Below are positions 9,961 through 42,044 of a stretch of DNA of 64,000 nt, in pieces. The notes under the pieces are model-generated. The model made no database searches. It was not told where the DNA came from and worked only from the letters and a program-made list of their open reading frames with translations. This stretch comes from a virus (taxonomy: Duplodnaviria > Heunggongvirae > Uroviricota > Caudoviricetes). The stretch's first letter is position 1, and every line of letters starts with the position of its first letter. The DNA lies in the IMG/VR virus record IMGVR_UViG_3300028886_000053; one strand, given 5' to 3'. Made by a program: the position numbers and the translations under genes.

Positions 9961-10000
9961 ATATAAAATACATTACAGGCTAACTCAACTTTATCCTTAA

Positions 10001-10962: not shown

Positions 10963-11010
10963 GGTATTATTATATCAAAAATTTTATAAAAAAACAAATA
11001 AAAATTGTCC

Positions 11011-11304
11011 TCACTTCATTATTGTTGAAGTTTTCCAATGTCTATAAAAAGATTTTAAAGTGGGATAACGACGAAGCCAATAAACATCATCTTTATTTGC
11101 TTCATACCATTCCTTTGCTTCATGCCAAGGCCAATAACTTATATAATCATGTATATCATAAGGTTCAAAAACTCGTCTATAAGATTTGCCACTAGGAACA
11201 TCATTTGTTCTACGAACCTTTTTATTGGCTTCTCGCTTTGCAAATTTAACTCTAGTAGGTCCACCGTCTTTAGTATAAGGATGTTTTTTATAAGAACGTG
11301 ACAT
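11011..11304 (-). CDS. hypothetical basic protein
   Basis: ORF track, 97 aa, K/R-rich. Confidence 0.4.
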   Translation of the reverse strand: MSRSYKKHPYTKDGGPTRVKFAKREANKKVRRTNDVPSGKSYRRVFEPYDIHDYISYWPWHEAKEWYEANKDDVYWLRRYPTLKSFYRHWKTSTIMK

Positions 11305-11337
11305 AATATTTTTCTCCTTTAGTTAAAAATACAACCA

Positions 11338-11417
11338 CATTAGGAATCGAACCTAAACTACTCCCTGCGGGGCGTGCTACGCGCTTAAATTAACTTCCAT
11401 TACACTATGTGGCTAGT
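11338..11417 (-). tRNA. tRNA-like gene with long variable region (type II-like). Anticodon unresolved.
   Basis: Acceptor AGCCACA/TGTGGTT. T-arm TTAGGTTCGATTCCTAA. The internal GC-rich segment does not give an unambiguous anticodon stem. Confidence 0.3.
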
Positions 11418-11706
11418 ACACCCCCAAGGAGTCGAACCTTGTGTACCTGGGTATAAGCCAGACCCCCAATACCGTCGAGGACGAGGTGCTTATGAATCCC
11501 AATATTTAGGATTCACATAATAATTATTTAAATATCCATTATAAAGAATTTTTCCACAATATTTACATCTCCAAGCACTTCGATAAATATGAGAAGTAGA
11601 AGTCTGATTAATTTTATCCCCATAAATATTACGAATAAATTCTATATTATTATGTTTGCAAAATAATTGTTTAATTTTTTTCATATTTATATAATTTGCT
11701 TTAAAT

Positions 11707-22204: not shown

Positions 22205-22440
22205 ATGTCAAATGCCCGCTGCCGATTCAAACCCTGCTGCCATATATCTGATCCCTCGATGCGGCAGCGGGTTGCATATGCCCTCGGTCTGGACCCGAGG
22301 GCCCTATGGGGGCTAAGGCCTGCTGCCTTAGCCACGATTCAACGCGTTAAACTTCTACACTTCAACGCGCTAAAGTCTGCGGACGCGGCGGGACCACTTT
22401 AGCGAAGTAACGCGTTACCGCGTTAAAGCGAAGTGCGTCC
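22205..22440 (-). ncRNA. GC-rich highly structured RNA of unknown identity, with a minus-strand promoter at about 22455-22490
   Basis: About 240 nt of more than 60 percent GC in an AT-rich context. It contains the palindrome GTAACGCGTTAC, a 9-bp stem CGCTAAAGT/ACTTTAGCG, and GCCCTCGG-TCTGGAC-CCGAGGGC. ORF 22205..22402 is compositional. Confidence 0.35.
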
Positions 22441-22544
22441 CCCTATTATTATATCACACTAGAGCAATGCGGTCAATCGGCAATTTGCACAATAATTTCG
22501 GGATTAGGTGGAAAAAATTTGTATATTTTTTTATGAAAAAAAAT

Positions 22545-22650
22545 TTGACATTGCGTGGGTTTTGTGGTAAAATCGGAGCGGGTCTGCGACCGCGCTCCGT
22601 CGCAGATGCCCCAACCCTTTATTATACCACAACCGGCGGCCGCCTGTCAA
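22545..22650. promoter_or_regulatory. face-to-face pair of extended -10 promoters flanking one GC hairpin
   Basis: Plus strand: TTGACA 22545, N17, TAAAAT 22568. Minus strand: TTGACA (rc at 22645-50), N18, TATAAT (rc at 22621-26). Both carry TG(G) extended -10. Hairpin CGGAGCGGGTCTGCGACCGCGCTCCG at 22574-22599 lies between them. Confidence 0.55.
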
Positions 22651-22834
22651 GTGCTTTTAACTGAAATTCTTCACTAAAATTTTCAGAATATTTTTTTACT
22701 AACTGATTATTACTAATTCTGTCAAAAAGCCATTCATCAAAAGATTTAGAATTAATAATTTTATCGGGAACATCAAAAACTCCTTCAATATTATAACTAC
22801 CTTCAATATATACTTTTGCCATTTTTATTCCTCC

Positions 22835-23026
22835 TTAAATAAATCTTCTTCCAGGATTAAGTATAATAAAACATTCCTCAAAATCCACTTCTTTTTCTTT
22901 TAATGTTTCATGATAGTCATACCAACTATCTGAACATTCATAATTGATTACGATTTGAGCGTTTTCGTATCCCAAATCAACTGCTAATTTGTAGAGTTCT
23001 TTAATTGTCATATTATTCTTCCTCAT
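22835..23026 (-). CDS. hypothetical protein
   Basis: ORF track, 63 aa. Confidence 0.4.
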   Translation of the reverse strand: MRKNNMTIKELYKLAVDLGYENAQIVINYECSDSWYDYHETLKEKEVDFEECFIILNPGRRFI

Positions 23027-23454
23027 TATCTAATCCATCAAACATTTCATCAAAGAGTGCGCAATCATCACATTCCTCTTTAGGATGTACACCTTCTTCC
23101 TCTTTCATGGAGCAAGTACCATCTTTTTTCCAATAAGGACAATCCCAACCATTTACAGGGCAATAGATTTTTTTCATTTGTTTAACTCCTTTTTATAAGG
23201 TATAATATCAAGAATCTCTGCACCCGAAAAATGGTCTGCAATAGTTGCATCTGCATTTTTTTCTGCTTCTTTTCTATTCTCTCCATAAACTGAAAAGCAA
23301 TCGAAAGAGTTATCAACCTTTAAAATAACAACTGCCCATTTCTTCATTTTATTTTACTTCCTTTCTGTTGATAATGTTATTATATCAAATTATAGGAAAA
23401 TAACAATAGTCAGATTAAACAAAAAACGCATTTAAAATTTGTGCAACATATATA

Positions 23455-23495
23455 TTGACATGCGAAGTGGCGCGTGGAGGGCGACCACGCGCCAC
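23455..23495 (+). promoter_or_regulatory. class-B cassette variant: TTGACA then directly the GC hairpin GTGGCGCGTGG...CCACGCGCCAC, preceded by a conserved 60-bp block
   Basis: Upstream block acaatagtcagattaaacaaaaaacgcatttaaaatttgtgcaacat is nearly identical to 27340-27397. There is no -10 hexamer. Confidence 0.4.
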
Positions 23496-23502
23496 CCAAT
23501 TC

Positions 23503-23805
23503 TTACTCCCAAGTTCTCACTCCGAGCAGAACCAAAACACTACAGATAGAAGCAAAAGCAAAAACTCCCATGTCCTCAGGAATTGCTTCCCATACTTCAG
23601 GATAGAGGTTGCGGACGCCGCTGAGAAGCATACCACCCCAGTTACCACCACATGCAGTACAGAACTTCAGCCATGTTTTCATGTCGCCATCAAATTTTCT
23701 TGCCTTGAAAGCGAGAGCAATAACTTCTTTACCCTGGTCACCCCAGTTTTCAACCAAAGTCCGCTGTGCTTCTTCAATAGTATTGTAGAGTTCAATATTT
23801 GTCAT
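23503..23805 (-). CDS. hypothetical protein
   Basis: ORF track, 100 aa. Confidence 0.45.
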   Translation of the reverse strand: MTNIELYNTIEEAQRTLVENWGDQGKEVIALAFKARKFDGDMKTWLKFCTACGGNWGGMLLSGVRNLYPEVWEAIPEDMGVFAFASICSVLVLLGVRTWE

Positions 23806-23818
23806 TTAAATCACCCCC

Positions 23819-24073
23819 TTAAGAAAAATCAAACTGCTCTACTGCACTGATATAAATAGTATCGTAATAGTCTTCACTCTCATTCTCATATTCAATAGAA
23901 ACGTATACCCCTGCTTTACAGAGAGCGACGAAGGCTTCTTTAAAATTCTGAATTGCCTTTACTTTTCTCTCATTATCTCTTACTTTCATGATACCATCCG
24001 CAGATTTCTGAATAGACGCAATCTGTGCATCAGTCATAGTTTCCATAGCCTTGATAATTTCTGTAAAATCCAT
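23819..24073 (-). CDS. hypothetical protein
   Basis: ORF track, 84 aa. Confidence 0.45.
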   Translation of the reverse strand: MDFTEIIKAMETMTDAQIASIQKSADGIMKVRDNERKVKAIQNFKEAFVALCKAGVYVSIEYENESEDYYDTIYISAVEQFDFS

Positions 24074-24315
24074 TTTGTTTTCTCCTTTTCTTTTGATAAT
24101 ATTATTATATCAGATAGTGATTAGAATGTCAAGTCAAATTCTGCATCTAACCACAAATCTACACAATATAATACTTCAATAGTAACTCTATCCTCGTCAC
24201 CATCTTCCATAGTTTCTGCTACCCATTTCCAATCTTCAAAAAATTTTTCTTTAAGATTAGGATAAAGGAAACATGCTTTATAGATACGGTTCAAAATTTC
24301 TTCTCTACTTTTCAT

Positions 24316-24612
24316 TTAAATCACCTCTACTTTCGGTCCTTTTCCTTTTTCTCTTGCAATATCTTCAAACTTCTGCCATGCCCAATACCAATATTCTTCA
24401 ATTTCTTCATAAGTAGCAATTTCGATTCTCTGAGCAAACATAATTACTCCAAAAGCAATTGCTCTACAATTCATTACTTCTTGTCTAGTATTTGCCCACA
24501 TTTCTGCATCTTCAAGACGGTCATCGACAAATTTTTTTACATCTTCAAAATCAAAATCTCTCATTTTTATCTCCTTTTTTATTTTTTTCCTTTCCTTACC
24601 TTGTAAATACAT
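24316..24612 (-). CDS. hypothetical protein
   Basis: ORF track, 98 aa. Confidence 0.45.
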   Translation of the reverse strand: MYLQGKERKKIKKEIKMRDFDFEDVKKFVDDRLEDAEMWANTRQEVMNCRAIAFGVIMFAQRIEIATYEEIEEYWYWAWQKFEDIAREKGKGPKVEVI

Positions 24613-24685
24613 TATAACAAATAAGATTTAGTTTGTAAAGTATAAAAAATGGGATAAAATAAATAAAATTTTGTGTAGATTTTCT

Positions 24686-24781
24686 ATTGACAAAAAGTGC
24701 GGTCGTGTGTTATAATTAAAATTTCGGCGCGGTTTGCCAGGAGCGCGCCGACCAAAAAGAGGTGGGTATTCATACCCACCT
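24686..24781 (+). promoter_or_regulatory. class-B promoter cassette: TTGACA-N18-(GTGTG)TTATAAT, then 9 nt, then two GC hairpins. It faces the 3' end of gene 24803..25147.
   Basis: TTGACA at 24686-91, TATAAT at 24710-15. Hairpin 1 is GGCGCGGTTTGCCAGGAGCGCGCC. Hairpin 2 is GAGGTGGGTATTCATACCCACCTC. On the minus strand hairpin 2 is followed by TTTTTGG, which makes it the terminator of that gene. Confidence 0.55.
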
Positions 24782-24802
24782 CTGCGACATTTTGGGGAGA
24801 GG

Positions 24803-25147
24803 TCAGGCGAGGACGAACCTCGTGACCTTGCCCTCCTTGACCTTGGCAACTACCTCAGCCTTGACCATCTGAGACAGAATGGCGGAAGCCTTCTGACAGG
24901 AGATGGCGAGAGCGGAGCCAATCTCAGTTGCGGTCATGCCATCGACCTCCTCGGTCAGCATGTCAACAATCTTGACCTTAAACTCCTCATTCTCACGCTG
25001 GGTCTTGGTGGGCTTCTTCAGCGCACCGCCAGAGTTGCGCTTTGCCAACTGCGCCTTGAGAGCGTTCAGACGCTCAATAGCCTCATCATTGAGGTTGCCC
25101 TCGATTGCAAGATTAATAGCCTCTGCGTAAGTCATAGCCTTTGCCAT
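24803..25147 (-). CDS. winged-helix DNA-binding protein, paralog 1 of 3 (GC-rich gene)
   Basis: ORF track, 114 aa. Shares MTYAxAIxxAIxGN..E.LExLxALK.QLxKRxSG..LTKTQ....DGMTATEVG...V.CQKASA.L.....V.K.KVGK.VRF with 25944..26288 and 27551..27901. Confidence 0.6.
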   Translation of the reverse strand: MAKAMTYAEAINLAIEGNLNDEAIERLNALKAQLAKRNSGGALKKPTKTQRENEEFKVKIVDMLTEEVDGMTATEIGSALAISCQKASAILSQMVKAEVVAKVKEGKVTRFVLA

Positions 25148-25844
25148 AATTCAACACCTCTTTCTTTAAAATGTTTTTTGTTTTCTTTTGTTATATTTAT
25201 TATACTATATTTAATTTTTATTGTCAAGTATTTTTTTATTTTTCTAAGTTACTTTTTTGTGGGTATTTATGTTCTAGCACGCCCACAGGATGAAATGGTG
25301 TGCGCACACCTTAAAACCTATCGTGCTTTTCTACTCATTCCCATACACTTAGTGTCCTTTCTTTTCCTTACCTTCTATAATTATTATATCAAAGGATTTT
25401 TATTTTGTCAAGAAGTTTTTTTATTTTCCCGAAGGAAGTAAGATTCTAAAAATAAGAACCAGTATCCAAAATGCCGTAGCCATCTTCCATGAAAAGGCAA
25501 CTACAAAAGAACCGATGGTAAAAATACCAATCCAGTGGAGTATTCCACAAGCAATAGCAAGAAGTCCTGCGGTAATAAGATAGTCAAGAATAAATGCTAA
25601 AATAATCATTTGTTACTCCTTTCTTAATTTCTATAATTATTATATCAAATGTTATTTTATTTGTCAAGAGGTTTTGAAATTTTTTCAAAATCCGTTTCGT
25701 TACCGAGTATCCACAGAAAAGAGAGCCTCTTTGAGGACTTTTTATCTCTTTCCTCTTGACAATTATAATTATAGCAAATATTTTTTTATTTGTAAAGTAC
25801 AAAAAACGGGTAAAAATTTAATTATTTTTGTGTAAAATTACCAT

Positions 25845-25908
25845 TGACAAAAAGTGCTTGGGTGTGATATAATTGAATTTTCGGCGCGAGACAAAGGCTC
25901 GCGCCCCG
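25845..25908 (+). promoter_or_regulatory. class-B promoter cassette (TTGACA-N17-TGATATAAT plus GC hairpin CGGCGCGAG...CTCGCGCCCCG)
   Basis: TTGACA at 25845-50, TATAAT at 25868-73, hairpin at 25882-25908. It lies immediately 3' of gene 25944..26288. Confidence 0.5.
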
Positions 25909-25943
25909 AGCATTTCTACTCAGGGCGTTTGCTTTGACAAGGG

Positions 25944-26288
25944 TCAGGCGAGGAAGAACCTCACCTGCTTACCCACCTTGTCCTTGCGGACACGCTCGTC
26001 AGCGACAAGCTTCTTGAGGAGTGCGCTTGCACGCTGGCAAGTCACATCCACCGCATCGCCGACCTCGGTGGCGGTCATGCCATCCTCGGCATCCACAAGC
26101 ACCTCGACGATGCGCTCCATCAGTTCCAGACCCTCTTTCTGAGTCTTGGTAAGACCATGCTTACCGCTACCTCTCTTGGCAAGCTGAACCTTGAGAGCCT
26201 CAAGCTTCTCAATAACCTCAGCATCAACATCGCCTGCGATGGCACGGTCAATAGCAACTGCATAAGTAAGTTTCTCCATACTTAACAC
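25944..26288 (-). CDS. winged-helix DNA-binding protein, paralog 2 of 3
   Basis: ORF track, 114 aa. Confidence 0.6.
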   Translation of the reverse strand: MLSMEKLTYAVAIDRAIAGDVDAEVIEKLEALKVQLAKRGSGKHGLTKTQKEGLELMERIVEVLVDAEDGMTATEVGDAVDVTCQRASALLKKLVADERVRKDKVGKQVRFFLA

Positions 26289-26682
26289 CTCTTTCTTAAA
26301 AATGATTTTTTTGTTTTCCTTATCTTTAAGTATATTATACTATAAGATTTTTAAATTGTCAATATGAAATTTTTATTTTTTTAATTGTTAAAAGGTTGTC
26401 ATCCTTGTCTATCGGAAACATTAGGGCGCCTACTAAATTCCTACCTCATGGCAACCCTTTAACAATTATTATTATAACAGATTGATAGTTACAAGTCAAG
26501 CCTTTTTTTCAAGATTTACATGCGCATGGTTATCTAAATTGGGGATGTGCTAACCGCCTTGACATTCGGCTTTCTTCCCTTACCTTGTAAATATATTATA
26601 TAAAATTTTTTTTAATTTTGCAAGAGGTAATAATAACTAAAATTATGGGAACATAGGGATGAAAATTTGTGTAGTTTTTTAC

Positions 26683-26746
26683 TTGACAAAAAGTGCGGCG
26701 GGTGGTATAATAGTGAATTTCGGCGCGAGGCGAGGCTCGCGCCCCG
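26683..26746 (+). promoter_or_regulatory. class-B promoter cassette
   Basis: TTGACA at 26683-88, GGTGGTATAAT at 26706-11, hairpin CGGCGCGAGGCGAGGCTCGCGCCCCG at 26720-46. It ends 4 nt past the stop of gene 26752..26964. Confidence 0.5.
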
Positions 26747-26751
26747 CAGAA

Positions 26752-26964
26752 TTACTTCCACAAGTCTGTGTAATCATGGTCTTTAAACCATTTGTCACAG
26801 AAATTAAAAGGGAAATAAACAATAATGATGCAAATCCCAATTTCAAGAAGGATAGGAGAGCAAACTGCCCACCAGGACCAATTAATTAGACCAGTAAGTT
26901 TTAAAACGATAAAAATAATCCACAACAGTTCAAAAATACCCATTTTTATTCTCCTTTTACCCAT
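26752..26964 (-). CDS. small membrane protein
   Basis: ORF track, 70 aa, hydrophobic. Confidence 0.4.
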   Translation of the reverse strand: MGKRRIKMGIFELLWIIFIVLKLTGLINWSWWAVCSPILLEIGICIIIVYFPFNFCDKWFKDHDYTDLWK

Positions 26965-27290
26965 TTTATGAATTTAGCCTTTTCATATTCTTTTTTAGTA
27001 GATTCATTTACATGAAGATGAAAACTAACAATCTCTCTGCCAGCCACATTTTCAAGTTCCTCTTTGGCTTCTTTTATTCCCCCCTCTAAAACAAGATAAA
27101 CAAAAACTGGAGGAGTGAGCAAGGGGCGAATGATGTAGTAAGCAGGCTTTTTTAAATAAACAGTAAGATTATAACCATATCCACCATCTACTTCTTCAAG
27201 CACTCCCTCGGTCATCCAGTCTAACAACCAGTCAAACTTTTTCTTTTTTAATCCTAAGATGTAATTAATCTCTCCATGTGTAAGTTTCAT
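26946..27290 (-). CDS. hypothetical protein
   Basis: ORF track, 114 aa. Confidence 0.45.
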   Translation of the reverse strand: MKLTHGEINYILGLKKKKFDWLLDWMTEGVLEEVDGGYGYNLTVYLKKPAYYIIRPLLTPPVFVYLVLEGGIKEAKEELENVAGREIVSFHLHVNESTKKEYEKAKFIKWVKGE

Positions 27291-27397
27291 TTTGTTTTCT
27301 CCTTTTCTTTTGATAATTCTATTATACTTAATTATAGGAATAATACAATAGTCAAAATAAACAAAAATCGCATCAAAAATTTATGCAACATTCCAGT

Positions 27398-27463
27398 ATT
27401 GACAAAAAATGGCGCGGGGCGGTGTCCGCGCGCCACAAAACAAAAAGCACCCCCGAAGGGGTG
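27398..27463 (+). promoter_or_regulatory. class-B cassette variant (TTGACA plus hairpin GGCGCGGGGCGGTGTCCGCGCGCC plus second hairpin GCACCCCCGAAGGGGTGC)
   Basis: Paralogous to 23455..23495, including the 60-bp upstream block. Confidence 0.4.
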
Positions 27464-27504
27464 CCCGCACAAGAAAGGAGGAAACCAAATATTGAAAATT
27501 GATA

Positions 27505-27551
27505 GGGTAGGTGGGGAATCGAACCCCACCGAATCCAGTACCCTAGTAGGT
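27505..27551 (-). pseudogene. tRNA 3'-half-like fragment (T-arm plus acceptor 3' strand) just 3' of gene 27551..27901
   Basis: Minus strand reads GGTGGGGTTCGATTCCCCACCTACCC (T-stem/T-loop/acceptor-like). No matching 5' half is present. Confidence 0.3.
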
Positions 27552-27901
27552 CAGTCGACCGCATAGAAGCGGACGACCTTACCTACCTTGTCCTTGCGGA
27601 CAGTGCCACCCTCGACCATCTGGCGAAGGATAGCGGAAGCCTTCTGGCAAGTAACTGCGATGGAGTTACCCACCTCAGTGGCAGTCATGCCATCAACCTC
27701 GGCTCTGAGATTCTCAAGAATCACGTTCTTGAGTTCCTCGTTTTCCTTCTGGGTCTTGGTCAGACCCTTGTGACCCGAACCACGCTTGGAAAGCTGAACC
27801 TTCAGTGCCTCAAGCCTCTCAAGCACTTCCTCATTGATGTTGCCAGCGATTGCGTTGTCAATTGCTACTGCGTAAGTCATCTTGTTTGCCATAAATAACA
27901 C
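27551..27901 (-). CDS. winged-helix DNA-binding protein, paralog 3 of 3
   Basis: ORF track, 116 aa. Confidence 0.6.
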   Translation of the reverse strand: MLFMANKMTYAVAIDNAIAGNINEEVLERLEALKVQLSKRGSGHKGLTKTQKENEELKNVILENLRAEVDGMTATEVGNSIAVTCQKASAILRQMVEGGTVRKDKVGKVVRFYAVD

Positions 27902-28039
27902 CTCTTTCTTTTGTTTATTTCTTTATTTGTTATATTTATTATATCTTATTTTTTTAAGTTTGTCAATATGAAATTTTATTTTTTTATGATTATTTCGCGG
28001 ATTTGGCGCCTTATACCGCATGGATGCTAGTATTTATGT

Positions 28040-28560
28040 TATAGCGCCCTAGCCACCTACATGGCGCTTATTTTTCATGCCAATTCATTTCCATTGACTC
28101 CTTTCCCGACTTTTTTAGTTCGCAACTGGAACTGTCGTTAAAAATTTAATTTAATTTAATTTTTTACTGTGGGACTTACTGCCGAAGGGCATCCGCCGTT
28201 CTTTTTTTAGGTCTTACTGCCCTTTATATCGGAGGGTCTCTCATTCTGTTCACTTCCTTCCTTTATCTTATGTATTTATTATAACACAAGATTTTTTATT
28301 TGTCAACAGTTTTTTTAAGATTTTGAAGTTTTCCGAAGGCTTTCGACCGTACCTTTAGGCATCAGCCCCTTGCCCTGTACTTCTTTCTTTATCTTATGTA
28401 CTTATTATAGCAGATATTTTTTAAATTGTCAAGAACTTTTTTATTTTTTATTTCTTGACTTTACAAGGAACACGTGGGAGCAAGCCTTTTGCATTTTCGC
28501 GTATTGGGATTGAGTAGGCTTTTTCATTTCCTCTTTCCCTTACCTTGTAAATATATTATA
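28040..28560 (-). other. cluster of at least 3 consecutive consensus promoters driving very short transcripts (micro-ORFs and/or sRNAs)
   Basis: Reverse-complement promoters lie near 28265-28330, 28385-28440 and 28540-28590. Downstream are small hairpins (TGCC-CTTC-GGCA) and a 28-codon ORF with an SD. Confidence 0.35.
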
Positions 28561-28631
28561 TCAAAACTTTTTTTGTTTGTAAAGTACAAATTTTGGGAAG
28601 ATCTTTGTGCAAAATGCCGATGAAAAAGTGC

Positions 28632-28736
28632 TTGACAAAAGTGCTGGCGTGTGGTATAATTGAAATTTGGCCGCGGACCAGCTGCAAGCGCCAGTCCGCG
28701 GCCCGCCATTATACCACGCCCGCCAGATTTTGTCAA
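28632..28736. promoter_or_regulatory. face-to-face pair of extended -10 promoters flanking one 35-nt GC hairpin
   Basis: Plus strand: TTGACA 28632-37, N17, (GTGG)TATAAT 28655-60. Minus strand: TTGACA (rc 28731-36), N17, (GTGG)TATAAT (rc 28708-13). Hairpin GGCCGCGGACCAGCTGCAAGCGCCAGTCCGCGGCC at 28669-28703. Confidence 0.55.
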
Positions 28737-28798
28737 GAGTTTTTTGAAAAAAATTATGCACAAAAATAGCGGACTGCTTTTGTGCAGTCCGCTGATTT

Positions 28799-29194
28799 TT
28801 ACTTTTTAGGGGGGCGGTGCTTTACAAGTTTGACGGTGTAACAATTGTTACCAAATGTGAACGAAAACTCCGCCTCGTTTTTAATTTCTGTAACAATTCC
28901 GCCTGCTCCCTCGATGGGGATTCTGCAAAGGTTCAGAAGTTCTTTCTTTTCCTCATCTACCTTGCGCTCTTTCTTTGTGGCTTTTCTAGGCTTTTCGGCT
29001 TTTTCGTAACGCTTAACAGATTTTGCTTTTGCAGTCAGTTCTTCAACTTCCTCATTCTCTGTATAGTCGTTATCATCAAGCCACATTGCAATTGCTTCCT
29101 CTTTGGAAATATCAAGAAGTTTCATGTTCTTTTCAATTTCCGCATCGGGAATATTGATTTCCTTACCATTAAAATTGTATTTCATGCTTATCAC
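28799..29194 (-). CDS. hypothetical protein
   Basis: ORF track, 131 aa. Confidence 0.5.
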   Translation of the reverse strand: MISMKYNFNGKEINIPDAEIEKNMKLLDISKEEAIAMWLDDNDYTENEEVEELTAKAKSVKRYEKAEKPRKATKKERKVDEEKKELLNLCRIPIEGAGGIVTEIKNEAEFSFTFGNNCYTVKLVKHRPPKK

Positions 29195-29243
29195 CTCTTT
29201 ACTTTTGTTGATAAGTTAATTATAAGGGATAGAAGGGGAAATG

Positions 29244-29942
29244 TCAAGCGACTTTTGTAAAAAGTCGCTTTTCCATTCTCTTATGTTGTCGAAAACAATG
29301 CACCATAATTTTAGTTTCAATGAGTACATCTTCAAGCCCTGTATGAGATTCCTCAAATGTTACATCGCCTGTAATATATCTGTAAAGAATTTCAGCGGTA
29401 AGTCGAGGCTGAGGCACTTTATGTTTTGTTACAAAATTATTAATTTCACAATATTTTCTGTAACTTTTCTGCTTGCCGATGGTCTGTCTTGCCATTTTCA
29501 GAGTATCCCACATTTCAATAGAATAAGGAAAGAAAAATCTCTTTTTAGATTTTGTTAAAAATCTAATTGTGTTATTAAGTGCATTTACATCAAATCTAGC
29601 ATTGTGGGCAAACGCATTTTTCACACTGTATTTTTTTACATCTTCCCAAAACTGATTATACATTGTGGAAAACTTTACAAGTTTACGTTGACCATTTTTA
29701 ACCTGTTCCCAATACATAGGGATTTTATCAGCATAATAAGCAGAATTCATAACATCCTTCATTGCTACAAAAACCTCATAAATCAGAAATGAACGTGTTT
29801 CATAGATTCTGCCCTGTTTGTCTGTAATAACCCAACCAATGTCATACACAATTGACTGACTTAAATCAAGTTTATCATTAACAAGAATACCATTGCAAGT
29901 TTCAGTGTCAAGCCCCATAAGGTAATTAATTCTTCTGTCCAT
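29244..29942 (-). CDS. DEDDh 3'-5' exonuclease (DnaQ/RNase T/oligoribonuclease-like)
   Basis: ORF track, 232 aa. Exo I GLDTETCNG, Exo II AHNARFD, Exo III HTGLEDV (H-x4-D). Confidence 0.65.
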   Translation of the reverse strand: MDRRINYLMGLDTETCNGILVNDKLDLSQSIVYDIGWVITDKQGRIYETRSFLIYEVFVAMKDVMNSAYYADKIPMYWEQVKNGQRKLVKFSTMYNQFWEDVKKYSVKNAFAHNARFDVNALNNTIRFLTKSKKRFFFPYSIEMWDTLKMARQTIGKQKSYRKYCEINNFVTKHKVPQPRLTAEILYRYITGDVTFEESHTGLEDVLIETKIMVHCFRQHKRMEKRLFTKVA

Positions 29943-29984
29943 GTTTGTTTTCTCCTTTTGTGTTGTTGTTCTTTACAAGTATTA

Positions 29985-30013
29985 TTATAGGGGATAGGGG
30001 CTGAAAAGTCAAC
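29985..30013 (-). promoter_or_regulatory. promoter (TTGACT-N17-TATAAT) for the DEDDh gene. The -35 sits in a GGGG...CCCC hairpin.
   Basis: Reverse complement reads TTGACT, 17 nt, TATAAT. SD AAAGGAGAAAAC, then ATG. Confidence 0.6.
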
Positions 30014-30464
30014 CCCCAAATCTCAAATTTTTCAGAAATTCATAAACATTTTTGTTTGCGTCAAAGGTTGCTCCCAGCGTCCACCCTTTTCTTACTTTGG
30101 CATTATCATCAATGAGAATCTGATGACCGCCTAATTTTCTTGTGCAATCGGCTTTTGTTGTGCCGTATTTAACCATGTGCAGTTCGTCATAGGGAAAACC
30201 GAATCTTTCAAGCCATTCCAGTTTTGCTTTTCTAACTGCTTTATCAAATTCTTTAGTGGCATCTTTAGCAAGCCATGTAGTAACAACAACACGCCATCCG
30301 TCATTCTTCAGTTCGTTCAGCACTTCCATCATAGCGAACATATCATAAAAAGGGCGGGCTTCTGTATACGGTCTGGCATCCTCTGCCATAAGGCAGTCAA
30401 GCCATCCATCTACACCATAGAGATTAGCGATTGTGCCATCCATATCGAATACTAATACCTTCAT
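30009..30464 (-). CDS. HAD-superfamily 5'(3')-nucleotidase-like hydrolase
   Basis: ORF track, 151 aa. Motif I VFDMDGTI. Later ILIDDN. Confidence 0.6.
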   Translation of the reverse strand: MKVLVFDMDGTIANLYGVDGWLDCLMAEDARPYTEARPFYDMFAMMEVLNELKNDGWRVVVTTWLAKDATKEFDKAVRKAKLEWLERFGFPYDELHMVKYGTTKADCTRKLGGHQILIDDNAKVRKGWTLGATFDANKNVYEFLKNLRFGG

Positions 30465-30584
30465 TTTGTTATCTCCTTTCCTTACCTTGTAACTATAGTA
30501 TAATGGATAGGGAGCAAAAAATCAAGAGGGAATGTTGCACAAATTTCGGGATCTGTACAGAAAAAAATTTGTGCAAATTTCCTA

Positions 30585-30650
30585 TTGACAAAAGTGGCTC
30601 GGGTGTGGTATAATGGATTTTTCGCCGCGGCCCGAGGACCACGGCGCGGT
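30585..30650 (+). promoter_or_regulatory. class-B promoter cassette
   Basis: TTGACA at 30585-90, (GTGTGG)TATAAT at 30609-14, hairpin CGCCGCGGCCCGAGGACCACGGCGCG. Confidence 0.5.
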
Positions 30651-31679
30651 CAAAAATTCAGTCTTCATAGACAATATCAGCATAGCCATCTTTCATTTCA
30701 AATTCATAATCATGATTGGCAATAGCAAAGCAAGCATTTGTAAAATCTTCATCTTCCTCAAAAATTGTAGATAACTGAGAAAGAATACTTACTAATTCTT
30801 CAGACACGGTTAAAGTGCGATTCATTTCAATTTTCATTTTTTATCACCTCATTTTTTTATTTTATTTAAATAGGATAGGTAGGAGTCGAACCTACATCTT
30901 GCCAAGTGTTTTCCCAATTAAACTACTTTAATGGAATTCGAATCCATATCTCTCGGCTGTGCTTCCCGATGTCACTTACTATCCTTTATTAATTTGCGTC
31001 CATCCTACCAGCCTGGGGGTTCCAGACGCTCCCCGCATGTTGCCTCACATTTATATACCGCAAAGTAGGACTTCGGCTTGCGGTGGTGGGACTTTATCAA
31101 CAGGACTTACTGCGACAACTTGGCGTCTTGGGTCTTTCCCTTGCCTGTATCCCTCATCTTGTATATTTATTATATCAAAGGGGTTGGAGTTTGTCAACCC
31201 CTTTTTTTAAATTCTTGCCTTGATTTCAGCGATTTTTGCCAAAGTCTTGGGACTTGCCTTGGCAAGACGCTCCGCCTGTTTCTTAGGCTTTTCCGCAAGA
31301 TACTTATGTCTTGCCATCTCCTCATCGGGCGGAGTGATATTAATAAAAGCAAAGATTGCATCGCCGTACTGATTAACAGGTGTCCAACATACTCTTCTCA
31401 TAATCTTATCTCCTTTTTTGTGATTTGTTTTCCTCTTGATGATTTTATTATAGCATTTTATTTGATTTTGTCAAGGGGTTTTTTCTGCAATCCGTTAATT
31501 TTTTTTCGTTTAAGGAGCGACCTTAGCGGAGTTGAACCGCCCACCCATCAAGGCTTGCCTTGGGCTACCCTTCTCCCCTTGACAATTATAATTATAAATG
31601 AATATTATTAAAAATACAATATCGGAATATTGCACAAATTATGGGATCTATAATTAAATATTTTTATTCAAATTTCTTA

Positions 31680-31752
31680 TTGACAAAATGGGGCTACGTG
31701 TGGTATAATGAAATTTCGCCGGCGCTCGGTAGTGGGCGACCGAGCGCCGGCC
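31680..31752 (+). promoter_or_regulatory. class-B promoter cassette with 13-bp perfect GC stem
   Basis: TTGACA at 31680-85, (GTGTGG)TATAAT at 31704-09, hairpin CGCCGGCGCTCGG-tagtgggcga-CCGAGCGCCGGCC. Confidence 0.5.
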
Positions 31753-31769
31753 GCCAATTTTCAAGAGGA

Positions 31770-32042
31770 TTAACAATCATCGGAATAGCAACCCATGTAA
31801 GGGTCGTATCCTGTTTCGTCTACATCATCTTCCCAGTCTTCATCTTCCCAATGCTCACCATCTTCGCAGATAGGACAAAGAAATTCTCCCAACTCCCTTT
31901 CAGTCCAGTCATATTCATAAATCGGTTCGCCACATTCGGGGCACTCATAGAATCTTTCTTCCCAATCTACATGGGCGCCATAAGTATCTCTAGCTTCAAC
32001 CGCATTTCTTTCCCACTGGGTCATGTTCTTTTTTCTTTCCAT
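31770..32042 (-). CDS. hypothetical acidic Cys-rich (zinc-finger-like) protein
   Basis: ORF track, 90 aa. CPECGEP...CPICEDGEHW. Confidence 0.45.
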   Translation of the reverse strand: MERKKNMTQWERNAVEARDTYGAHVDWEERFYECPECGEPIYEYDWTERELGEFLCPICEDGEHWEDEDWEDDVDETGYDPYMGCYSDDC

Positions 32043-32114
32043 GATTTTCTCCTCTTGATGATTAAAAGTTTTCTTTACCTTGTATACTTATTATAATATA
32101 GGGGTTGAGTTTTG

Positions 32115-32402
32115 TCAACCCCTATTCTCTTTATAATAAGAGATAATGTTCATTGCCATTTCTTCTACTGTTGCTTCTGTTACATCTTCTTCATCCCAAG
32201 GAAAATCCATGCTTTCTACATGACCTTGATTTGCTCCATAACTTCCATTATGGCAGACAACATCTCCTGCACACCAAGGGAAAGTAAATTGATAACCATC
32301 AAAAAGAGGTGTGATTGTAAAAGGAACCTTATTTACTAAAAGATGTGCCATTAATTTGGCAGTAGTTTCAAGATATTTTTGGGGATTAGCATTAAACATC
32401 AT
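32115..32402 (-). CDS. hypothetical protein
   Basis: ORF track, 95 aa. Confidence 0.45.
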   Translation of the reverse strand: MMFNANPQKYLETTAKLMAHLLVNKVPFTITPLFDGYQFTFPWCAGDVVCHNGSYGANQGHVESMDFPWDEEDVTEATVEEMAMNIISYYKENRG

Positions 32403-33057
32403 TTTTTATACCTCACTTTATATTGTTATTTGTTGATATGATTATTATACTTTATTTAATAGGGGATGTCAACCCTTATTTTTAAATACTTGAAAAAAGT
32501 TGGGGAAATATTCCCATTCCTACTAAAAATAGTACAATAGTCAGAAGAATGAAGATAGCACTGTCCGAATCTTCATTTAAACTTTTCAGCACAGTTGTGA
32601 AACAAATGCAAGCAGTAAAAATTATATAAAGCCAATCCATTTTTATACCCCCTTATGCAATTCTATAAATAATATTGGAGCGGAAGCCGAGCCAATACTC
32701 GAATCCATTGAAAAATCCGAGGAATGTAGCAGACGGCAGTTCAAATCTGGAAGTGATAGTCTTATAGACTACAGTATTCAGTGCAAGTCCTCTGCGATTC
32801 AGAGCCATCTCTAATTTAGTCATAGTCATGGTTTTTTCTCCTCTCGGTCTTGATTATTTGATCCTATGGAGTACCACTGGTTCATGTAGGTGGCGGATAC
32901 CGAACTCCATAGTGGGGATACCACTGGTTCATGTAGGTGGCGGATACCTCATCCCCTTGACAAGTATAATATTATCATACCCTAGCCTAGATTGCAAGTA
33001 GTAATAATGCACAAAATTCGGGATTTTCTAGGCTCAATGTTTGTGCAGATTGCCAAT

Positions 33058-33131
33058 TGACAAAATGTGGCGGCATGTGGTATACTGGAATTTCGTCGCG
33101 GGGCGCGCAGGGACCGCCGCCCGCGCGACGT
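33058..33131 (+). promoter_or_regulatory. class-B promoter cassette
   Basis: TTGACA at 33058-63, (GTGG)TATACT at 33082-87, hairpin CGTCGCGGGGCGCGCAGGGACCGCCGCCCGCGCGACG. Confidence 0.5.
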
Positions 33132-33836
33132 CCAAAAAATTTTTATCTCCTGTACCAAGGTGCGAATTTCTTTTCTCCATCCCATGCTTCAATTTCACAG
33201 ACTTCCCATTTGATTTCTTCATATCTTTTAAGAAGTTCTTCTACTGTGTCAAACTCTTCACACTGAGTATCATCATCATATTGATCAAAATCATAAGTGA
33301 GAGCATATCTTTTTTCTTCTGTCATTTTTTCCACTCCTTTTCTTTTTCTTTATATATATATTATATCATAAAAAAATTTTTTTGTCAATAGGAAATTTTT
33401 TGCCCTTAGAAGTAATTTCTAAGGGCTTTCTTACCGTCTGCCCTATTGTATTTCTTTTTGTCCTTATGGACTCTAGTTCCAGTATTGAAAGTTACAAGAA
33501 CTCTATTCTGCTTATCATGTTCTCTTTTCATTTTTTTATTAGGGGTCTTTGTTGCTAACATTTCGATCAATTCCTTTCTTTTGATAATCTTATTATATTA
33601 TAAAAAATCTAGTGTGTCAATAGTTTTTTTAAAAAGATCGAGAAGTTTCTCAGTGATTTTCAACTTCTCCACTGGCGACTATTTACTACTCGGCTTTTTC
33701 TCCGACTGAGCCTAGGATTGTCAGATATTTTACCTTTTGCTTTATGGAGGCGTCTGCTATTCCCCTCGCTAGGTAAGTAAGGAATCGAACCTTATTCAGA
33801 CCTTTTTCTCTTACCTTGTATCTTTATTATATAATA

Positions 33837-33858
33837 GGGGTTGAGGTTTGTCAACCCC
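33837..33858. promoter_or_regulatory. bifunctional hairpin GGGGTTGA-GGTTTG-TCAACCCC. Plus-strand terminator (followed by T6). On the minus strand it carries the -35 TTGACA of a promoter.
   Basis: Same element recurs at 31181-31202, 32101-32122, 34057-34078, 34821-34846, 35208-35229, 35466-35488 and 29997-30017. Each is 17 nt from a minus-strand TATAAT. Confidence 0.5.
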
Positions 33859-34504
33859 TTTTTTAAATTGTTATTGTTTTATTATCATTATCAACATCAA
33901 AGCAATCAACGTCATCTGTCTGTAAAGTGTATGTATCATAAAGATTTTTTCCTAAAAGAATATCATAATCAACTACTCCATTTGCTACTGCCCAATCATA
34001 AAGATCTTTAATAGTCATTTTTTATTTCTCCTTTGTTTTTTCTTTATTATATAATAGGGGTTGAGGTTTGTCAACCCCTTTTATTTACATTTCATAATAT
34101 TTATTTCTTGCGTGCACCCTTGCGAGTTCTATAACCTTTGTCGGTTTCGGCTCATCTTCCCTATAGTATCTAAGGATCTGAGCAGGTCTTGCGATGAGTT
34201 TTGTTACAAGGATTCCGGTTCTCTGATTATATACAAGGATGAGTGCAGTATCGGTGATTTTATGAACTTCCGGTCCATTTCTGTGACCACGGTCTACAAC
34301 CACTTTCTTTATAACAGTTCCTGTTCCGATCTTGGCGATAATGGTTTCACGTGCTTGGCGGTCCTTGGTATAGTGCTTGCTGTTCATCTTGGTATCTCCT
34401 TTCCTTTTGTTGATTCTAGTATACCATACCCACCGCCAATTGCAATAGGCAAAATACACAAAGATTTCGGGATCTTTTTGTGCAGATTGCCATGCAGATT
34501 TTGC

Positions 34505-34613
34505 TTGACAAAAACCTCGACCTGTGGTATAATGTTGATTCTCGGTGCGCGGCGGAATGAAGTGGACGCCCGCGCGCCGGCTGACAAAAGGAAAAGAGGA
34601 CCTCAGTCCTCTT
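34505..34613 (+). promoter_or_regulatory. class-B promoter cassette with two hairpins
   Basis: TTGACA at 34505-10, (CTGTGG)TATAAT at 34528-33, GC hairpin at about 34544-34580. Second hairpin AAGAGGAC-CTCA-GTCCTCTT is followed on the minus strand by a U-run. Confidence 0.5.
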
Positions 34614-34857
34614 CCCAATCCCACTCTGTATCATCGAGTGCGGCTTCCATAGCGTCCAGTTTAATCTGATAGGGCTTGTCCGCATTTCTTTCAAGCCATC
34701 CTGCGAACTGGATTGTGTCCCTATGTTCGAATCCTTTGACTCTGATTACTCTTGTAAGCATCTCCTCGTGTGTCATCATTTTTCAGATCCTCCTTTGTTT
34801 TTGTTAAGTTTATTATATCAAAGGGCTTGGCTTTTGTCAAGCCCTTTTTTAAACTTT

Positions 34858-35166
34858 TTAGCAATAAGCAAGGTTTTTTCTGCTCCATCCAAAGATGGAG
34901 ATTTGATTGTGTTCTCTGCCGATTCTCAATGCTTCCTTTTTTGTATCTACTCTGAAACTCTTATCAATGTAGTAGATTCCATCGGCGAACCAAACTCCGC
35001 AGTTTCCGCCGTATGCCTTGACCGCTTCAATTGCTTCTCTTGCGGTCTTGACTTCAACTCCGTATATGGCTACTTGCCATCCTGTTTTGTACTCGATAAC
35101 CTTTCCGCTTTTAAGTGTGATTCCATCATTATTTGCTAATTTTCTTATTGTTCTAATATTGATCAT
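34858..35166 (-). CDS. hypothetical protein
   Basis: ORF track, 102 aa. Confidence 0.45.
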   Translation of the reverse strand: MINIRTIRKLANNDGITLKSGKVIEYKTGWQVAIYGVEVKTAREAIEAVKAYGGNCGVWFADGIYYIDKSFRVDTKKEALRIGREHNQISIFGWSRKNLAYC

Positions 35167-35491
35167 TTTTATTACTTCCTTTCCTTTGATGATTTAAGTA
35201 TATCATAGGGGTTGTAATTTGTCAACCCCTATTTTTATCTTTTCTATAAAGAAAATCATCAAGTTCAATCTCTCCAGCTTCATCTAAAAAATAATCTTGA
35301 CCAACGCTCTCTTCAGGGAAAAAGTTGTTCCATGTTTCTCCACTATGAAAACGACAAAACTCTTCAGGTGTCATTTCAACTTCTCTTTCATAAGGAATAT
35401 AAGCGGTAAGTTTAACTTTCATTTTTTAATCTCCTTTGCTTTTCTATGGTTTAAGTATATCATAGGGATTGAGGTTTGTCAACCCCCTTTT

Positions 35492-35734
35492 TTAAAAGAT
35501 ATACCTTTTTTCTTTTAACTGGTCCTCGGTGTACATTCTATCAGGAAGAAAAACACCGCCCTTGAGATAAGTTTCATATTCAATTTTTTCACCCTGCCAA
35601 GTCTGTCTGATAACAGTTCTCTCGATATGGGTGTGTTCGGCTTTAGCAACTGCTACAGCCTGTTTCCAGTTCTCGCCCCATGCGCTGTCGCCATAAAATT
35701 CCTGTCCGTTTACGATGTAGATGAAAGTTGTCAT
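35492..35734 (-). CDS. hypothetical protein
   Basis: ORF track, 80 aa. Confidence 0.45.
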   Translation of the reverse strand: MTTFIYIVNGQEFYGDSAWGENWKQAVAVAKAEHTHIERTVIRQTWQGEKIEYETYLKGGVFLPDRMYTEDQLKEKRYIF

Positions 35735-35974
35735 TGTTCGATCCTCCTATGTGCTTGTTTTTTGTTCCTTTCGATGATATAATGATACTACATAACCAAT
35801 AGACTGACTAGGTACTTTTTTGACTTGTTTTAAATTAATTTTGGCTTTTTTATGGAAGTTTTAGGTCTTTTTTGACATGTTACAAAACATTAAGAAAATG
35901 TTACAAGATCATTACAAAAAAAAGTCAAAATTTTAGGATAAAAATTTTTTATCAAAATTTGTGCATTTTTGATA

Positions 35975-36004
35975 TTGACAAGTTGGTTGCCTGTGTGGTA
36001 TAAT
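35975..36004 (+). promoter_or_regulatory. class-B-type promoter (TTGACA-N18-TGTGGTATAAT) at the entrance to the iteron region
   Basis: Exact hexamers with a TG extension. It is followed by a 30-bp palindrome. Confidence 0.5.
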
Positions 36005-36048
36005 GGTTCGGCCTGCAGCGCTGTAATGCGCTAAAGTGCTAAAGTCAT

Positions 36049-40823: not shown

Positions 40824-42044
40824 ATGCAAGAAAAAGAAGATAACGTTATTCCTACTGAAGATGACGCTGTAGATACACAAGAGTTAAAACTTGATTATAC
40901 GATCTAGTCACCAGTGGAACGTAATGAATTAGTAAAAAAGATTGTAGAATCCTTACCTCCCTAGAAGTTAACGAATAGATACTTAGAAATATTAGCGGAT
41001 TATATTATATTTGCAAAAACGAAAGAATAGAGAAAAAAACAAGAGTCTATTAATACTGAAAATAGAATGATAACAATAAATAAACGGTAGACTTCATTTT
41101 AGGGACTAGTAGGAAAATTTGAAAATGGAGAAGATGGAGTATATAACTTATTTACAGAAGATAAGAACATTATCTTTACTCCAAAGATTTCAATTACAGA
41201 AGAAGATTTGGCGGAGATTCCAGCCTTACGAGAATTACGTGCAGCTATTGAAGAGGTTTAGAAACTTTAGAAAACAGCTCGTGGTAAACGTAAATATCTT
41301 CTTAAAAAACAAATTATTTAGATGCGGCAAGATCAGTATGTTATTAAAACTTCTTATAAACAACCGATCTTTTGTCTTAATGCCGTAAAAAATTTCAGTT
41401 CAATGAGTTTTGAAGATAACATTTCTATATCTCCAGATGGAAAAATAAAAGATAAGAGTTTAATATCTTTTATAAATCCTAAACATATCTCTGCTCTATT
41501 GAGAAATTATTCCCGATTAAAAGAAGATTGTTATGGAAAATTTTATACTGATGGATATTATATGATGGAAGTTTTAGATGAATTAGTGGACAAAGCTTTA
41601 AAAGAAAAATATCCTCTTTATTATAGTTTATTGATATATAAAATAGATGGGAAGTCTAATTTAGAAATTCAAAAACTATTAGAAGAAGAACATGGAATAA
41701 GACATTCAGTTGAATATATTTCTTCTCTTTGGCGAAATAAAATTCCAAAATTAATTGCAGAACAGGCCGAAATTGATTTTTTACATTGGTATTATTTAGA
41801 AAAAGAAAAAGGGAAATGGAAAAAATGTTCTCGATGTGGAGAAGTAAAATTAGCGCATAATAAATTTTTTTCTAAAAATAATTCTAGCAAAGATGGATTT
41901 TATTCAATCTGTAAATAGTGCAGAAATAAAAAGAAACGCATAACTCCTAAACCAGAAATTATAAAATATAGAGAAATTGAAAACGGAGTTGTAGTAAAGG
42001 AGGAGATATGGCGAAAAAGAAATGTAGCAAATGTTAGCGAGTAA
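40824..42044 (+). CDS. hypothetical late protein, TAG-recoded (about 9 in-frame TAG), C-terminal CxxC...CxxC zinc ribbon, ends TAA
   Basis: Single frame from ATG 40824 (frame 0) through standard-code fragment 41322..41918 to TAA at 42042-44. The C-terminus is CSRCGEVKLAHNKFFSKNNSSKDGFYSICK-Q-CRNKKKR. Confidence 0.5.

Follow-up and report, generated by a model that had tools for sequence, protein, structure and literature searches.

A conserved promoter-hairpin cassette, repeated opposite the early genes of uncultured gut and rumen phages, as a possible source of antisense RNA

The early region of an uncultured phage (Caudoviricetes; IMG/VR record IMGVR_UViG_3300028886_000053) carries a repeated cassette of about 100 bp, in which a promoter is followed at a fixed distance by a GC-rich hairpin and points towards the 3' end of a gene on the other strand. 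We analysed a stretch of 64,000 nucleotides from this record, referred to here as the window, together with related phage contigs, and conclude that the cassette is a real, conserved regulatory element that was previously undescribed. The cassette may launch an antisense RNA whose 5' end is closed by the hairpin. The phage is large and AT-rich (G+C about 33%), and 23 tRNA genes, a transfer-messenger RNA (tmRNA) and a ROOL RNA lie within positions 1-11,500 of the window. Between 22,000 and 36,000 small genes follow each other on the minus strand, and nearly every one is preceded by a perfect sigma-70/sigma-A promoter of its own. The pattern TTGACA-N16-19-TATAAT was found 32 times in the window, with 0.09 occurrences expected.

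A preliminary description of this DNA had listed about 12 copies of a cassette made of a "class-B" promoter and a hairpin. The 12 sites were aligned and their sequence was read. The repeat family proved real and its sites correct, but the members are unequal: eight are full cassettes, all on the plus strand (named here by the start of the -35 hexamer: 24687, 25844, 26683, 28632, 30585, 31680, 33057 and 34505), and four are variants (22545, 23455, 27399 and 35975). From upstream to downstream a full cassette consists of an AAATTyGGGAT motif, a TTTGTGCA or AAATTTGTGCA-type block that ends about 11 nt before the -35, TTGACA(AAA), a GC-rich spacer of 17-18 bp, an extended -10 of the form (G)TGTGG-TATAAT (TRTG-extended, Gram-positive type), the sequence gGAAATTTCG, and a GC hairpin. 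Only cassette 33057 deviates in its -10, which reads TATACT. The hairpins of the full copies span 22-37 nt and fold at -13 to -30 kcal/mol. The upstream block, earlier called conserved, is found as TTTGTGCA or TTTGTGTA before 10 of the 12 copies, and a GGGA-type motif is present in about 8 of the 12. A kinship with the late promoter at 40762, also suggested earlier, came down to a generic TGnTATAAT, since that promoter has neither the upstream block nor the GC spacer nor the hairpin.

A covariance model of 52 nt was built from the -10, the initial transcribed region and the hairpin, leaving out the -35, and was trained on 16 cassettes from other phages only. In the 64-kb window it found exactly the eight full cassettes, all on the plus strand (E ≤ 3e-4). 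The only other match was the hairpin of 23455, and the variant at 22545 was not detected. Among 147 distinct matches to this model, a perfect TTGACA at a spacer of 17-18 bp was present in 145, and the hexamers were even better conserved than the hairpins. As the -35 was no part of the model, its near-invariance refutes the notion that these are minus-strand terminators with chance hexamers on the plus strand, and supports the earlier claim of genuine plus-strand promoters. With a UP-like AAATTTGTGCA block, TTGACA, a 17-18 bp spacer, a TRTG-extended TATAAT and a GG discriminator, this half of the cassette is, judged from its sequence, a maximal host sigma-A promoter under selection. A small open reading frame (ORF) behind the promoter was considered and rejected: the ATG of TATAATGG overlaps the -10 and would stay untranscribed, and no conserved plus-strand ORF follows downstream.

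The hairpin is likewise maintained. Stem cells of the alignment were paired in 96.1%, in comparison to 70.2% in shuffled alignments, and 240 of them had changed on both sides (66 in the shuffles). Compensatory changes were detected at all eight stem positions, and pairing in slid controls was 20-57%. A fold of -12 kcal/mol or lower was predicted for 85% of the cassettes, but for only 9% when the corresponding stretch after 1087 other consensus promoters of these loci was folded. The stems are almost purely G-C, with about 8% A-U and 0.6% G-U pairs. Their position is also fixed: TTTCG follows the -10 after 5-6 nt in 146/165 cassettes, and the stem begins at the C or G of TTTCG in 118/165, about 8 nt past the -10 and at about +2 to +4 of the predicted transcript. 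Only the 5' leader before the stem, AAAUUUCG, is conserved, and the stem and loop sequences are free. These comparative data indicate that the hairpin is selected as a structure and is coupled to the promoter. Antitermination RNAs of the nut/put kind and mimicry of CRISPR repeats were ruled out, because no stem or loop sequence is conserved. At the gathering threshold, and equally with E up to 1, no Rfam family matched the cassettes, the sole overlap being a chance-level one with Actino-pnp (E = 0.13).

Folding energies are the same on both strands and wobble pairs are nearly absent on either. The model-based alignment contained 8 A:C and 7 G:T mismatches; a wobble bias towards the gene strand seen in a first count (20 A:C against 7 G:T) was not reproduced in it. 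In the full cassettes the hairpin is followed by CGAAAUUUCCAUUAUA, a U-tract is found on neither strand, and none was flagged as a terminator. A terminator-like appearance, on the minus strand, is limited to the truncated copies, and only in 27399 is the hairpin directly followed by a U-tract.

In the relatives the coding strand was approximated by purine skew. It was opposite to the cassette in 143/153 cases downstream and 155/158 upstream, and in all 54 loci with at least two cassettes these shared one orientation, most commonly at a spacing of 0.75-1.25 kb. A converging ORF of at least 45 codons ended at most 300 nt away from 165 of 182 cassettes. The gap between hairpin and converging stop codon was 6-50 nt in the window and had a median of 40 nt over 165 cassettes in the relatives, so that the preliminary placement of the cassettes against early genes, just past their stop codons, holds. 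The converging genes belong to many families (winged-helix, zinc-finger and acidic proteins), and only one of them, 26752-26964, is membrane-like. Gene-specific targeting was examined as a candidate and rejected: winged-helix paralogs lie past three window cassettes, yet among 78 homologs in relatives only 18 have a cassette opposite them, and the other converging genes are unrelated to one another.

Between the converging gene and the hairpin a canonical terminator for that gene is present at 71% of the cassettes, and a bidirectional terminator at 37% of all cassettes. Nothing else lies there at 24%, and the GC hairpin is therefore the only 3' structure at these. At 16% of the cassettes a second class-B promoter faces the first across the same hairpin, at about 30-35 bp. 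Two such face-to-face pairs occur in the window (28632/28736 and 22545/22650). In such pairs transcription from either promoter would begin at the base of the hairpin, away from any gene end, and this favours a role of the hairpin at the 5' end. On the strand of the cassette, a terminator follows at 50-100 nt in 59/150 cassettes (about 39%), in comparison to about 5% at control positions, so that the predicted plus-strand RNA is 60-100 nt long in these. For the other cassettes the first terminator on the same strand lies 200 to more than 1500 nt away, and the predicted RNA crosses 0-7 gene-strand promoters. Terminators beside cassettes are more often bidirectional than those elsewhere (41% vs 28%, p = 0.002), suggesting that plus-strand transcription is real and often curtailed. 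Two further ideas on transcript ends did not stand. An antisense stop built at the promoter of the target gene was seen at four window cassettes, but in the relatives it was found in 23/98 against a background of 19%, which is no excess. Contigs with winged-helix genes in public assemblies break at cassettes, which was an assembly effect and not a record of transcript ends.

On its upstream side the block belongs to a back-to-back pair of divergent promoters. Upstream of 94/165 cassettes a gene-strand promoter was detected, and in most of these pairs the -35 hexamers stand 58-60 bp apart (48-60 bp for the pairs of the window). The window partners, which start the next early unit, are weak in their -35 hexamers (TTTACA, TTGCAA, TTGATT, TTGTAT). 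The AAATTTGTGCA-type block lies at about -57 to -47 of both promoters and resembles the distal UP-element consensus, with a conserved GTGCA core. The most conserved motif of all, GGGAT, lies between the two promoters, and AAATTTCGG is present both in this centre and at the transcript start. From this arrangement of motifs, the cassette is one half of a back-to-back promoter module at the boundary of two early transcription units. Three winged-helix-like paralogs of 114-116 amino acids are encoded just downstream of cassettes (24803-25147, 25944-26288 and 27551-27901, minus strand). By eye their genes are far richer in G+C than the 33% of the genome. They have 246 uncharacterised homologs, a few with a match to PF16365 (EutK_C), and the three paralogs are candidate regulators of a cassette operator composed of the AAATTTGTGCAAATTT block and the GGGAT centre.

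A search of related phages, proposed with the first description, was carried out. An exact-pattern scan of IMG/VR gave at least 80 loci, mostly on rumen and gut contigs of 11-198 kb, and the covariance model found 219 cassettes in 805 kb of these loci. In total there are more than 200 cassettes on more than 80 uncultured phage contigs. Scanning 596 Gb of bacterial and archaeal genomes yielded 52 loci. About half of them were true cassettes on short contigs of rumen and gut metagenome-assembled genomes with inconsistent taxonomic labels, and the rest were ordinary tRNA-operon promoters of Clostridia with the same TTGACAAAA...TGGTATAAT core. Because the contigs of the former are short and their labels inconsistent, they are probably mis-binned phage, and we rejected the cassette as a feature of bacterial genomes. 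The tRNA-operon promoters of Clostridia use the same core as the cassette promoter, which thus resembles the strongest stable-RNA promoters of host type, and the host is therefore probably a Clostridium-class Firmicute.

No GenBank phage matched the phage at the DNA level. The nearest cultured relatives by protein are Enterococcus phages of 140 kb that share HAD-x-exonuclease synteny; these have sense-oriented consensus promoters and no cassette (best match to the model at E = 0.096). A block made of a 232-amino-acid protein with DEDDh exonuclease motifs (DTET, HNARFD, HTGLED) and an adjoining HAD/PNKP-like phosphatase (29244-29942 and 30009-30464, minus strand; locus L137) is kept in more than 60 cassette loci and is syntenic with the same Enterococcus phages. 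The closest relative found was contig ONVC01000033.1, at 82-89% identity. In this one genome pair homology stops shortly after a hairpin at three places (26741, 30656 and 33137), beyond which the genes are unrelated. Relatives also combine the same promoter with different hairpins, as in locus L030, where the promoter of cassette 26683 stands before the hairpin of cassette 30585. Judged by these sequence breaks, the cassettes mark junctions of swapped gene modules.

The full cassettes of the window, all on the plus strand with partner promoters on the minus strand, were located as follows. Cassette 24687 (24645-24752; -35 at 24687-24692, -10 at 24711-24716, hairpin at 24724-24751) scored 34.3 bits with the covariance model. 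Its partner promoter (TTTACA-N17-TATAAT, 24611-24639) drives gene 24316-24612. The interval from the converging gene 24803-25147 to the hairpin contains that gene's canonical minus-strand terminator (24758-24783). Cassette 25844 (25803-25908; -10 at 25868-25873, hairpin at 25883-25905) is paired with TTTACA-N17-TATAAT at 25768-25796. In cassette 26683 (26641-26745; -10 at 26706-26711) the hairpin at 26722-26743 is followed 6 nt later by the stop codon of gene 26752-26964, and the partner promoter is TTGCAA-N17-TATAAT at 26595-26623. Cassette 28632 (28589-28703; -10 at 28655-28660) has a hairpin of -24.6 kcal/mol at 28669-28703, across which the opposing class-B-type consensus promoter is located at 28708-28736 (minus strand), and its divergent partner is TTTACA-N17-TATAAT at 28555-28583. 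A bidirectional terminator at 28767-28794, which ends gene 28799-29194 (minus strand), would stop the plus-strand RNA of this cassette at about 130 nt.

In cassette 30585 (30536-30649), AATTTCGGGAT is located at 30542, TTTGTGCA at 30568 and the -10 at 30609-30614, and 8 nt separate the hairpin (about 30622-30649) from the stop codon of gene 30658-30837. Its partner (TTGATT-N17-TATACT, 30497-30525), which drives gene 30009-30464, was read from sequence, as were those of the next two cassettes. Cassette 31680 (31637-31751; -10 at 31704-31709) has a hairpin of -30.1 kcal/mol at 31718-31751 (z = -4.3) and the partner TTGTAT-N17-TATAAT at 31591-31619. For cassette 33057 (33014-33130) the TATACT -10 is at 33081-33086, the hairpin at 33094-33130 and the partner, TTGCAA-N17-TAATAT, at 32969-32997. 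Cassette 34505 (34465-34580; -10 at 34528-34533, hairpin at 34542-34580) is paired with TTGCAA-N16-TATACT at 34418-34445, and a minus-strand terminator of the converging gene 34603-34779 was found at 34591-34616.

The four variants, also on the plus strand, differ among themselves. The one at 22545 (22483-22606) has AATTTCGGGAT at 22494, its -35 at 22545-22550, a TAAAAT -10 at 22568-22573 and a GC hairpin of -19.1 kcal/mol at about 22574-22606; the consensus promoter that faces it over this hairpin lies at 22621-22650 (minus strand). Two copies are truncated and have no -10. The copy at 23455 (23438-23495) consists of TTTGTGCA and a -35 that abuts a hairpin at 23467-23495 (-22.9 kcal/mol, z = -5.1), which accounts for its hairpin-only match. 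The copy at 27399 (27380-27435) has TTTATGCA and a -35 abutting a hairpin at 27410-27435. On the minus strand (27431-27412) it reads as a canonical terminator of hairpin and U-run and was flagged as such, and the variant is conserved in five relatives. The last variant, at 35975 (35931-36032), has the class-B promoter and the upstream block with a weak hairpin of 5 bp (z = -0.95), is a boundary variant, and heads real plus-strand genes (ATG at 36218).

For the function of the cassette we favour, at somewhat less than even odds, a cis-acting antisense RNA combined with a boundary and a module joint. The promoter would launch a non-coding RNA, with the hairpin closing its 5' end, and such a flush 5' hairpin could guard the RNA from the 5'-end-dependent decay by RNase J1 and RNase Y in Firmicutes. 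Because the cassette faces the 3' end of the converging early gene, its RNA would be a cis-antisense partner of the mRNA of that gene. At about 40% of the cassettes the RNA is predicted to stop at the gene's own bidirectional terminator, giving a two-hairpin product of 60-100 nt whose overlap with the mRNA is confined to the 3' end. From the other cassettes it would run back through at least one early unit and could cover the whole converging mRNA. Pairing, together with head-on polymerase traffic, would tune the level or lifetime of the converging mRNA or shut it off, and would also keep read-through out of the next unit, for which the divergent partner, a weaker promoter, presumably provides the start. 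At sites that lack any other terminator (the 24% and the truncated copies), the same palindrome could serve as the 3' hairpin of the converging mRNA, and the cassette of about 100 bp may in addition be a joint for the exchange of gene modules between related phages.

Several points weigh against the antisense reading. Where the RNA starts, how long it is and how stable it is are predictions throughout. As predicted, it has neither a uniform length, with terminators 50 to more than 1500 nt away, nor a uniform target, as it crosses 0-7 gene-strand promoters and meets diverse gene families; a local boundary function therefore fits at least as well as gene-specific antisense action. Of the antisense shut-off of early genes put forward in the preliminary description, the geometry stands, but a general full-length version is weakened because about 39% of the RNAs would end at 50-100 nt, before the coding region. 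With wobble pairs scarce and folding energies equal, the data favour neither strand as the one on which the hairpin works, and on the gene strand its role would be mostly redundant, since 71% of the cassettes already have a canonical terminator. The antisense model also leaves the GGGAT motif and the AAATTT of the initial transcribed region unaccounted for.

A boundary function could also arise without any use of the RNA. Polymerase parked in a long-lived, poorly escaping complex would block read-out from the converging early unit, and the RNA would be incidental. All features that stabilise open complexes are present (consensus -35, 17-bp spacer, TRTG, consensus -10 and GG discriminator), and the GC-rich DNA from about 8 nt past the -10 could clamp the downstream edge of the bubble. 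The cassettes lie at unit boundaries every 0.75-1.25 kb or so, beside the partner promoter of the next unit, and the A-run after the hairpin, a U-run in the converging RNA, is located where a colliding polymerase would stall. However, a clamp needs no palindrome, and compensatory changes maintain the pairing; 71% of the boundaries already have a canonical terminator, and the enrichment of bidirectional terminators implies that plus-strand transcripts are made and need a stop. We therefore regard insulation by parked polymerase as rather unlikely.

The module junctions raise another alternative, that the cassette is a mainly selfish or evolutionary linker, kept for homologous exchange and of little regulatory meaning. 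Synteny that breaks at hairpin ends, non-homologous genes between conserved cassettes, the shuffling of hairpins among cassette positions and the precedent of the PeSL cassettes discussed below (PMC2839356) are consistent with it. Homology alone would, however, not keep the hexamers perfect, a hairpin of free sequence paired and the orientation the same in 54 of 54 loci. Exchange fits as a role added to the antisense reading and not as a substitute for it, and as the sole explanation it is clearly unlikely.

We consider it improbable that the cassette mainly helps its divergent partner promoter, by recruiting polymerase, by negative supercoiling or through a common regulator, with hairpin and terminators serving to shorten its transcript. 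The partner at 94/165 cassettes, the mostly fixed distance of 58-60 bp between the -35s, the weak -35 hexamers of the window partners, and the AAATTTGTGCA-type block at about -50 of both promoters with the conserved GGGAT between them would all suit a helper. Yet short untranslated transcripts give little torsional stress, the need for pairing in the hairpin and its place at +3 are left unexplained, and at 43% of the cassettes no partner promoter was detected by pattern. Quite improbable, too, is a role of the RNAs as decoys, in which nuclease-resistant hairpins with the 5' tag AAAUUUCG titrate a host RNase, an RNA-binding protein or an RNA-sensing defence. A leader common to all cassettes in front of variable hairpins, very strong promoters, short two-hairpin RNAs as about 40% of the products and many copies per genome would fit such a sponge, but no stem or loop sequence is conserved for recognition by a protein, and the strict placement opposite gene ends in a single orientation would be superfluous.

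Secondary replication origins primed by transcription, or R-loop sites, appear very improbable. They are suggested by analogy only with the origins of T4 and T7, in which a promoter is followed by a special downstream sequence. The palindrome here has no G/C skew between its arms and includes neither an unwinding element nor a G-rich block, copies number about 10 per 14 kb and are restricted to the early region, and many transcripts would end within 100 nt; no finding supported either the R-loop origins or the sigma-factor decoys offered in the first description. That the cassettes are ordinary minus-strand terminators with chance plus-strand hexamers is almost certainly wrong: the truncated copies 23455 and 27399 look so on the minus strand, but the hexamers are near-invariant over 147 independent cassettes, the full cassettes have no minus-strand U-tract and are not flagged, and 71% of the cassettes have a separate canonical terminator.

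Among known systems, the cassette is closest in form to the promoter early stem-loop (PeSL) cassettes of T4-type phages (Arbiol et al. 2010, PMC2839356; Comeau et al. 2014, PMC4122927). Both are intergenic repeats of about 100 bp in which a strong host-type promoter, with AT-rich DNA upstream of it, is combined with a stem-loop rich in G/C; both cluster where early ORFs are small and variable, and both are found at junctions of inserted, deleted or replaced modules (for our cassette in one genome pair). A PeSL promoter drives the next ORF, and the PeSL cassette ends in the Shine-Dalgarno sequence and ATG of that ORF (PMC2839356), whereas the promoter described here points away from the next gene, against the previous one, and has no ORF behind it. 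Its stem-loop also stands at a fixed distance after the -10 and has no U-tract, and it belongs to another phage clade, with probable Firmicute instead of Gram-negative hosts. Ordinary PeSL-like composites in sense orientation occur in the window as well (31177-31204, 32098-32125, 33836-33859, 34056-34079 and 35205-35232; for example AGGGGTTGAGGTTTGTCAACCCCT at 33836). In these the -35 of a minus-strand promoter lies in the hairpin loop (AGGGGTTGA...TCAACCCCT), and the hairpins score as plus-strand terminators because a T-run follows on that strand.

In its predicted action the cassette is closest to OOP RNA of phage lambda, a 77-nt transcript from promoter pO that is antisense to the 3' end of cII. 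In both, an early gene of the phage is opposed by a constitutive promoter of host type whose non-coding transcript lies over the 3' end of the mRNA; for the cassette the geometry is observed and the RNA, short and closed by an intrinsic terminator at part of the sites, is predicted. Lambda has one copy and these phages 8-10 per genome, OOP has no conserved 5'-terminal hairpin module, and a nearby terminator is present at only about 40% of the cassettes. The cassette departs from a defining feature of the PeSLs and may depart from one of OOP RNA. The Bacillus type I toxin-antitoxin loci txpA/RatA and bsrG/SR4 have cis-antisense RNAs that overlap at the 3' end. They resemble the cassette in their convergent promoters, the overlap over a shared bidirectional terminator and the Firmicute sigma-A setting, but the cassette recurs as a module and brings a conserved hairpin of its own, and its targets are diverse early proteins and not small hydrophobic toxins. 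Interference between face-to-face promoters is known from pR/pL of coliphage 186 and Pe/Pc of P2, which are single, repressor-controlled lysis-lysogeny switches. At 16% of the cassettes convergent promoters are likewise close enough for interference (about 30-35 bp), but here they are many repeats along the early region, built around a hairpin.

Several other elements were observed in the window. A conserved AAGAAAGGAGGAA element lies at 27470-27560 and also in loci L030, L058, L059, L062, L074, L111 and L132, in 11 places altogether. In about eight copies it stands between a tRNA-like T-arm element and a terminator, where ARAGORN calls no tRNA. Read on the gene strand it is UUCCUCCUUUCUU, identical to the anti-Shine-Dalgarno end of 16S rRNA. 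Four promoter-driven stretches without ORFs look like structured non-coding RNAs (22212-22440, 26385-26470, 30840-31170 and 33640-33800, minus strand), and none of the four had a match in Rfam. The first is GC-rich with repeated TAAAG(C/T)G motifs, and the third has a weak tRNA match at 30871-30932. Two direct copies of the 30-nt TACCACTGGTTCATGTAGGTGGCGGATACC are found at 32868-32946, in the predicted 5' leader of gene 32653-32829 (minus strand).

The minus strand upstream of the early region carries a full-length ROOL RNA (6109-6707, 296.8 bits), the tmRNA (2282-2561) and the 23 tRNA genes (363-11489), and a tRNA with a CUA anticodon was found at 1721-1793. In-frame TAG codons occur in the first late gene that follows the 40762 promoter (40825-41000), for example at 40906 and 40963, and long ORFs are scarce in 41-64 kb under the standard code. 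The in-frame TAG codons together with the CUA-anticodon tRNA suggest that the late genes use amber-codon recoding. The late region also encodes a GIY-YIG homing endonuclease (44902-45732, plus strand).

A broader proposal, possible though on the doubtful side, is that the cassettes are an element of a hitherto unrecognised kind that organises phage genomes, forming a co-regulated array of capped antisense promoters that splits the early region throughout a clade of large Clostridia phages into units of about 1 kb. One palindrome would cap the antisense RNA at its 5' end and at the same time form the 3' end of the mRNA, and a shared operator/UP block with the GGGAT centre would switch the antisense arm together with the promoter of the next unit, so that convergent transcription would provide timing and insulation genome-wide and not as single switches. 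The cassette itself is a readily searched marker of the clade, with more than 200 matches to a 52-nt model, and points to the likely recombination joints by which the early genes of the clade are shuffled. If the function favoured above is true, it would also be a portable part for synthetic biology in Firmicutes, joining a maximal sigma-A promoter to a 5' stabilising hairpin of any sequence. For the phages it would mean that a large uncultured gut and rumen group controls its host-takeover genes by 8-10 antisense units per genome, a new design of temporal control and insulation in place of single repressor-controlled switches.

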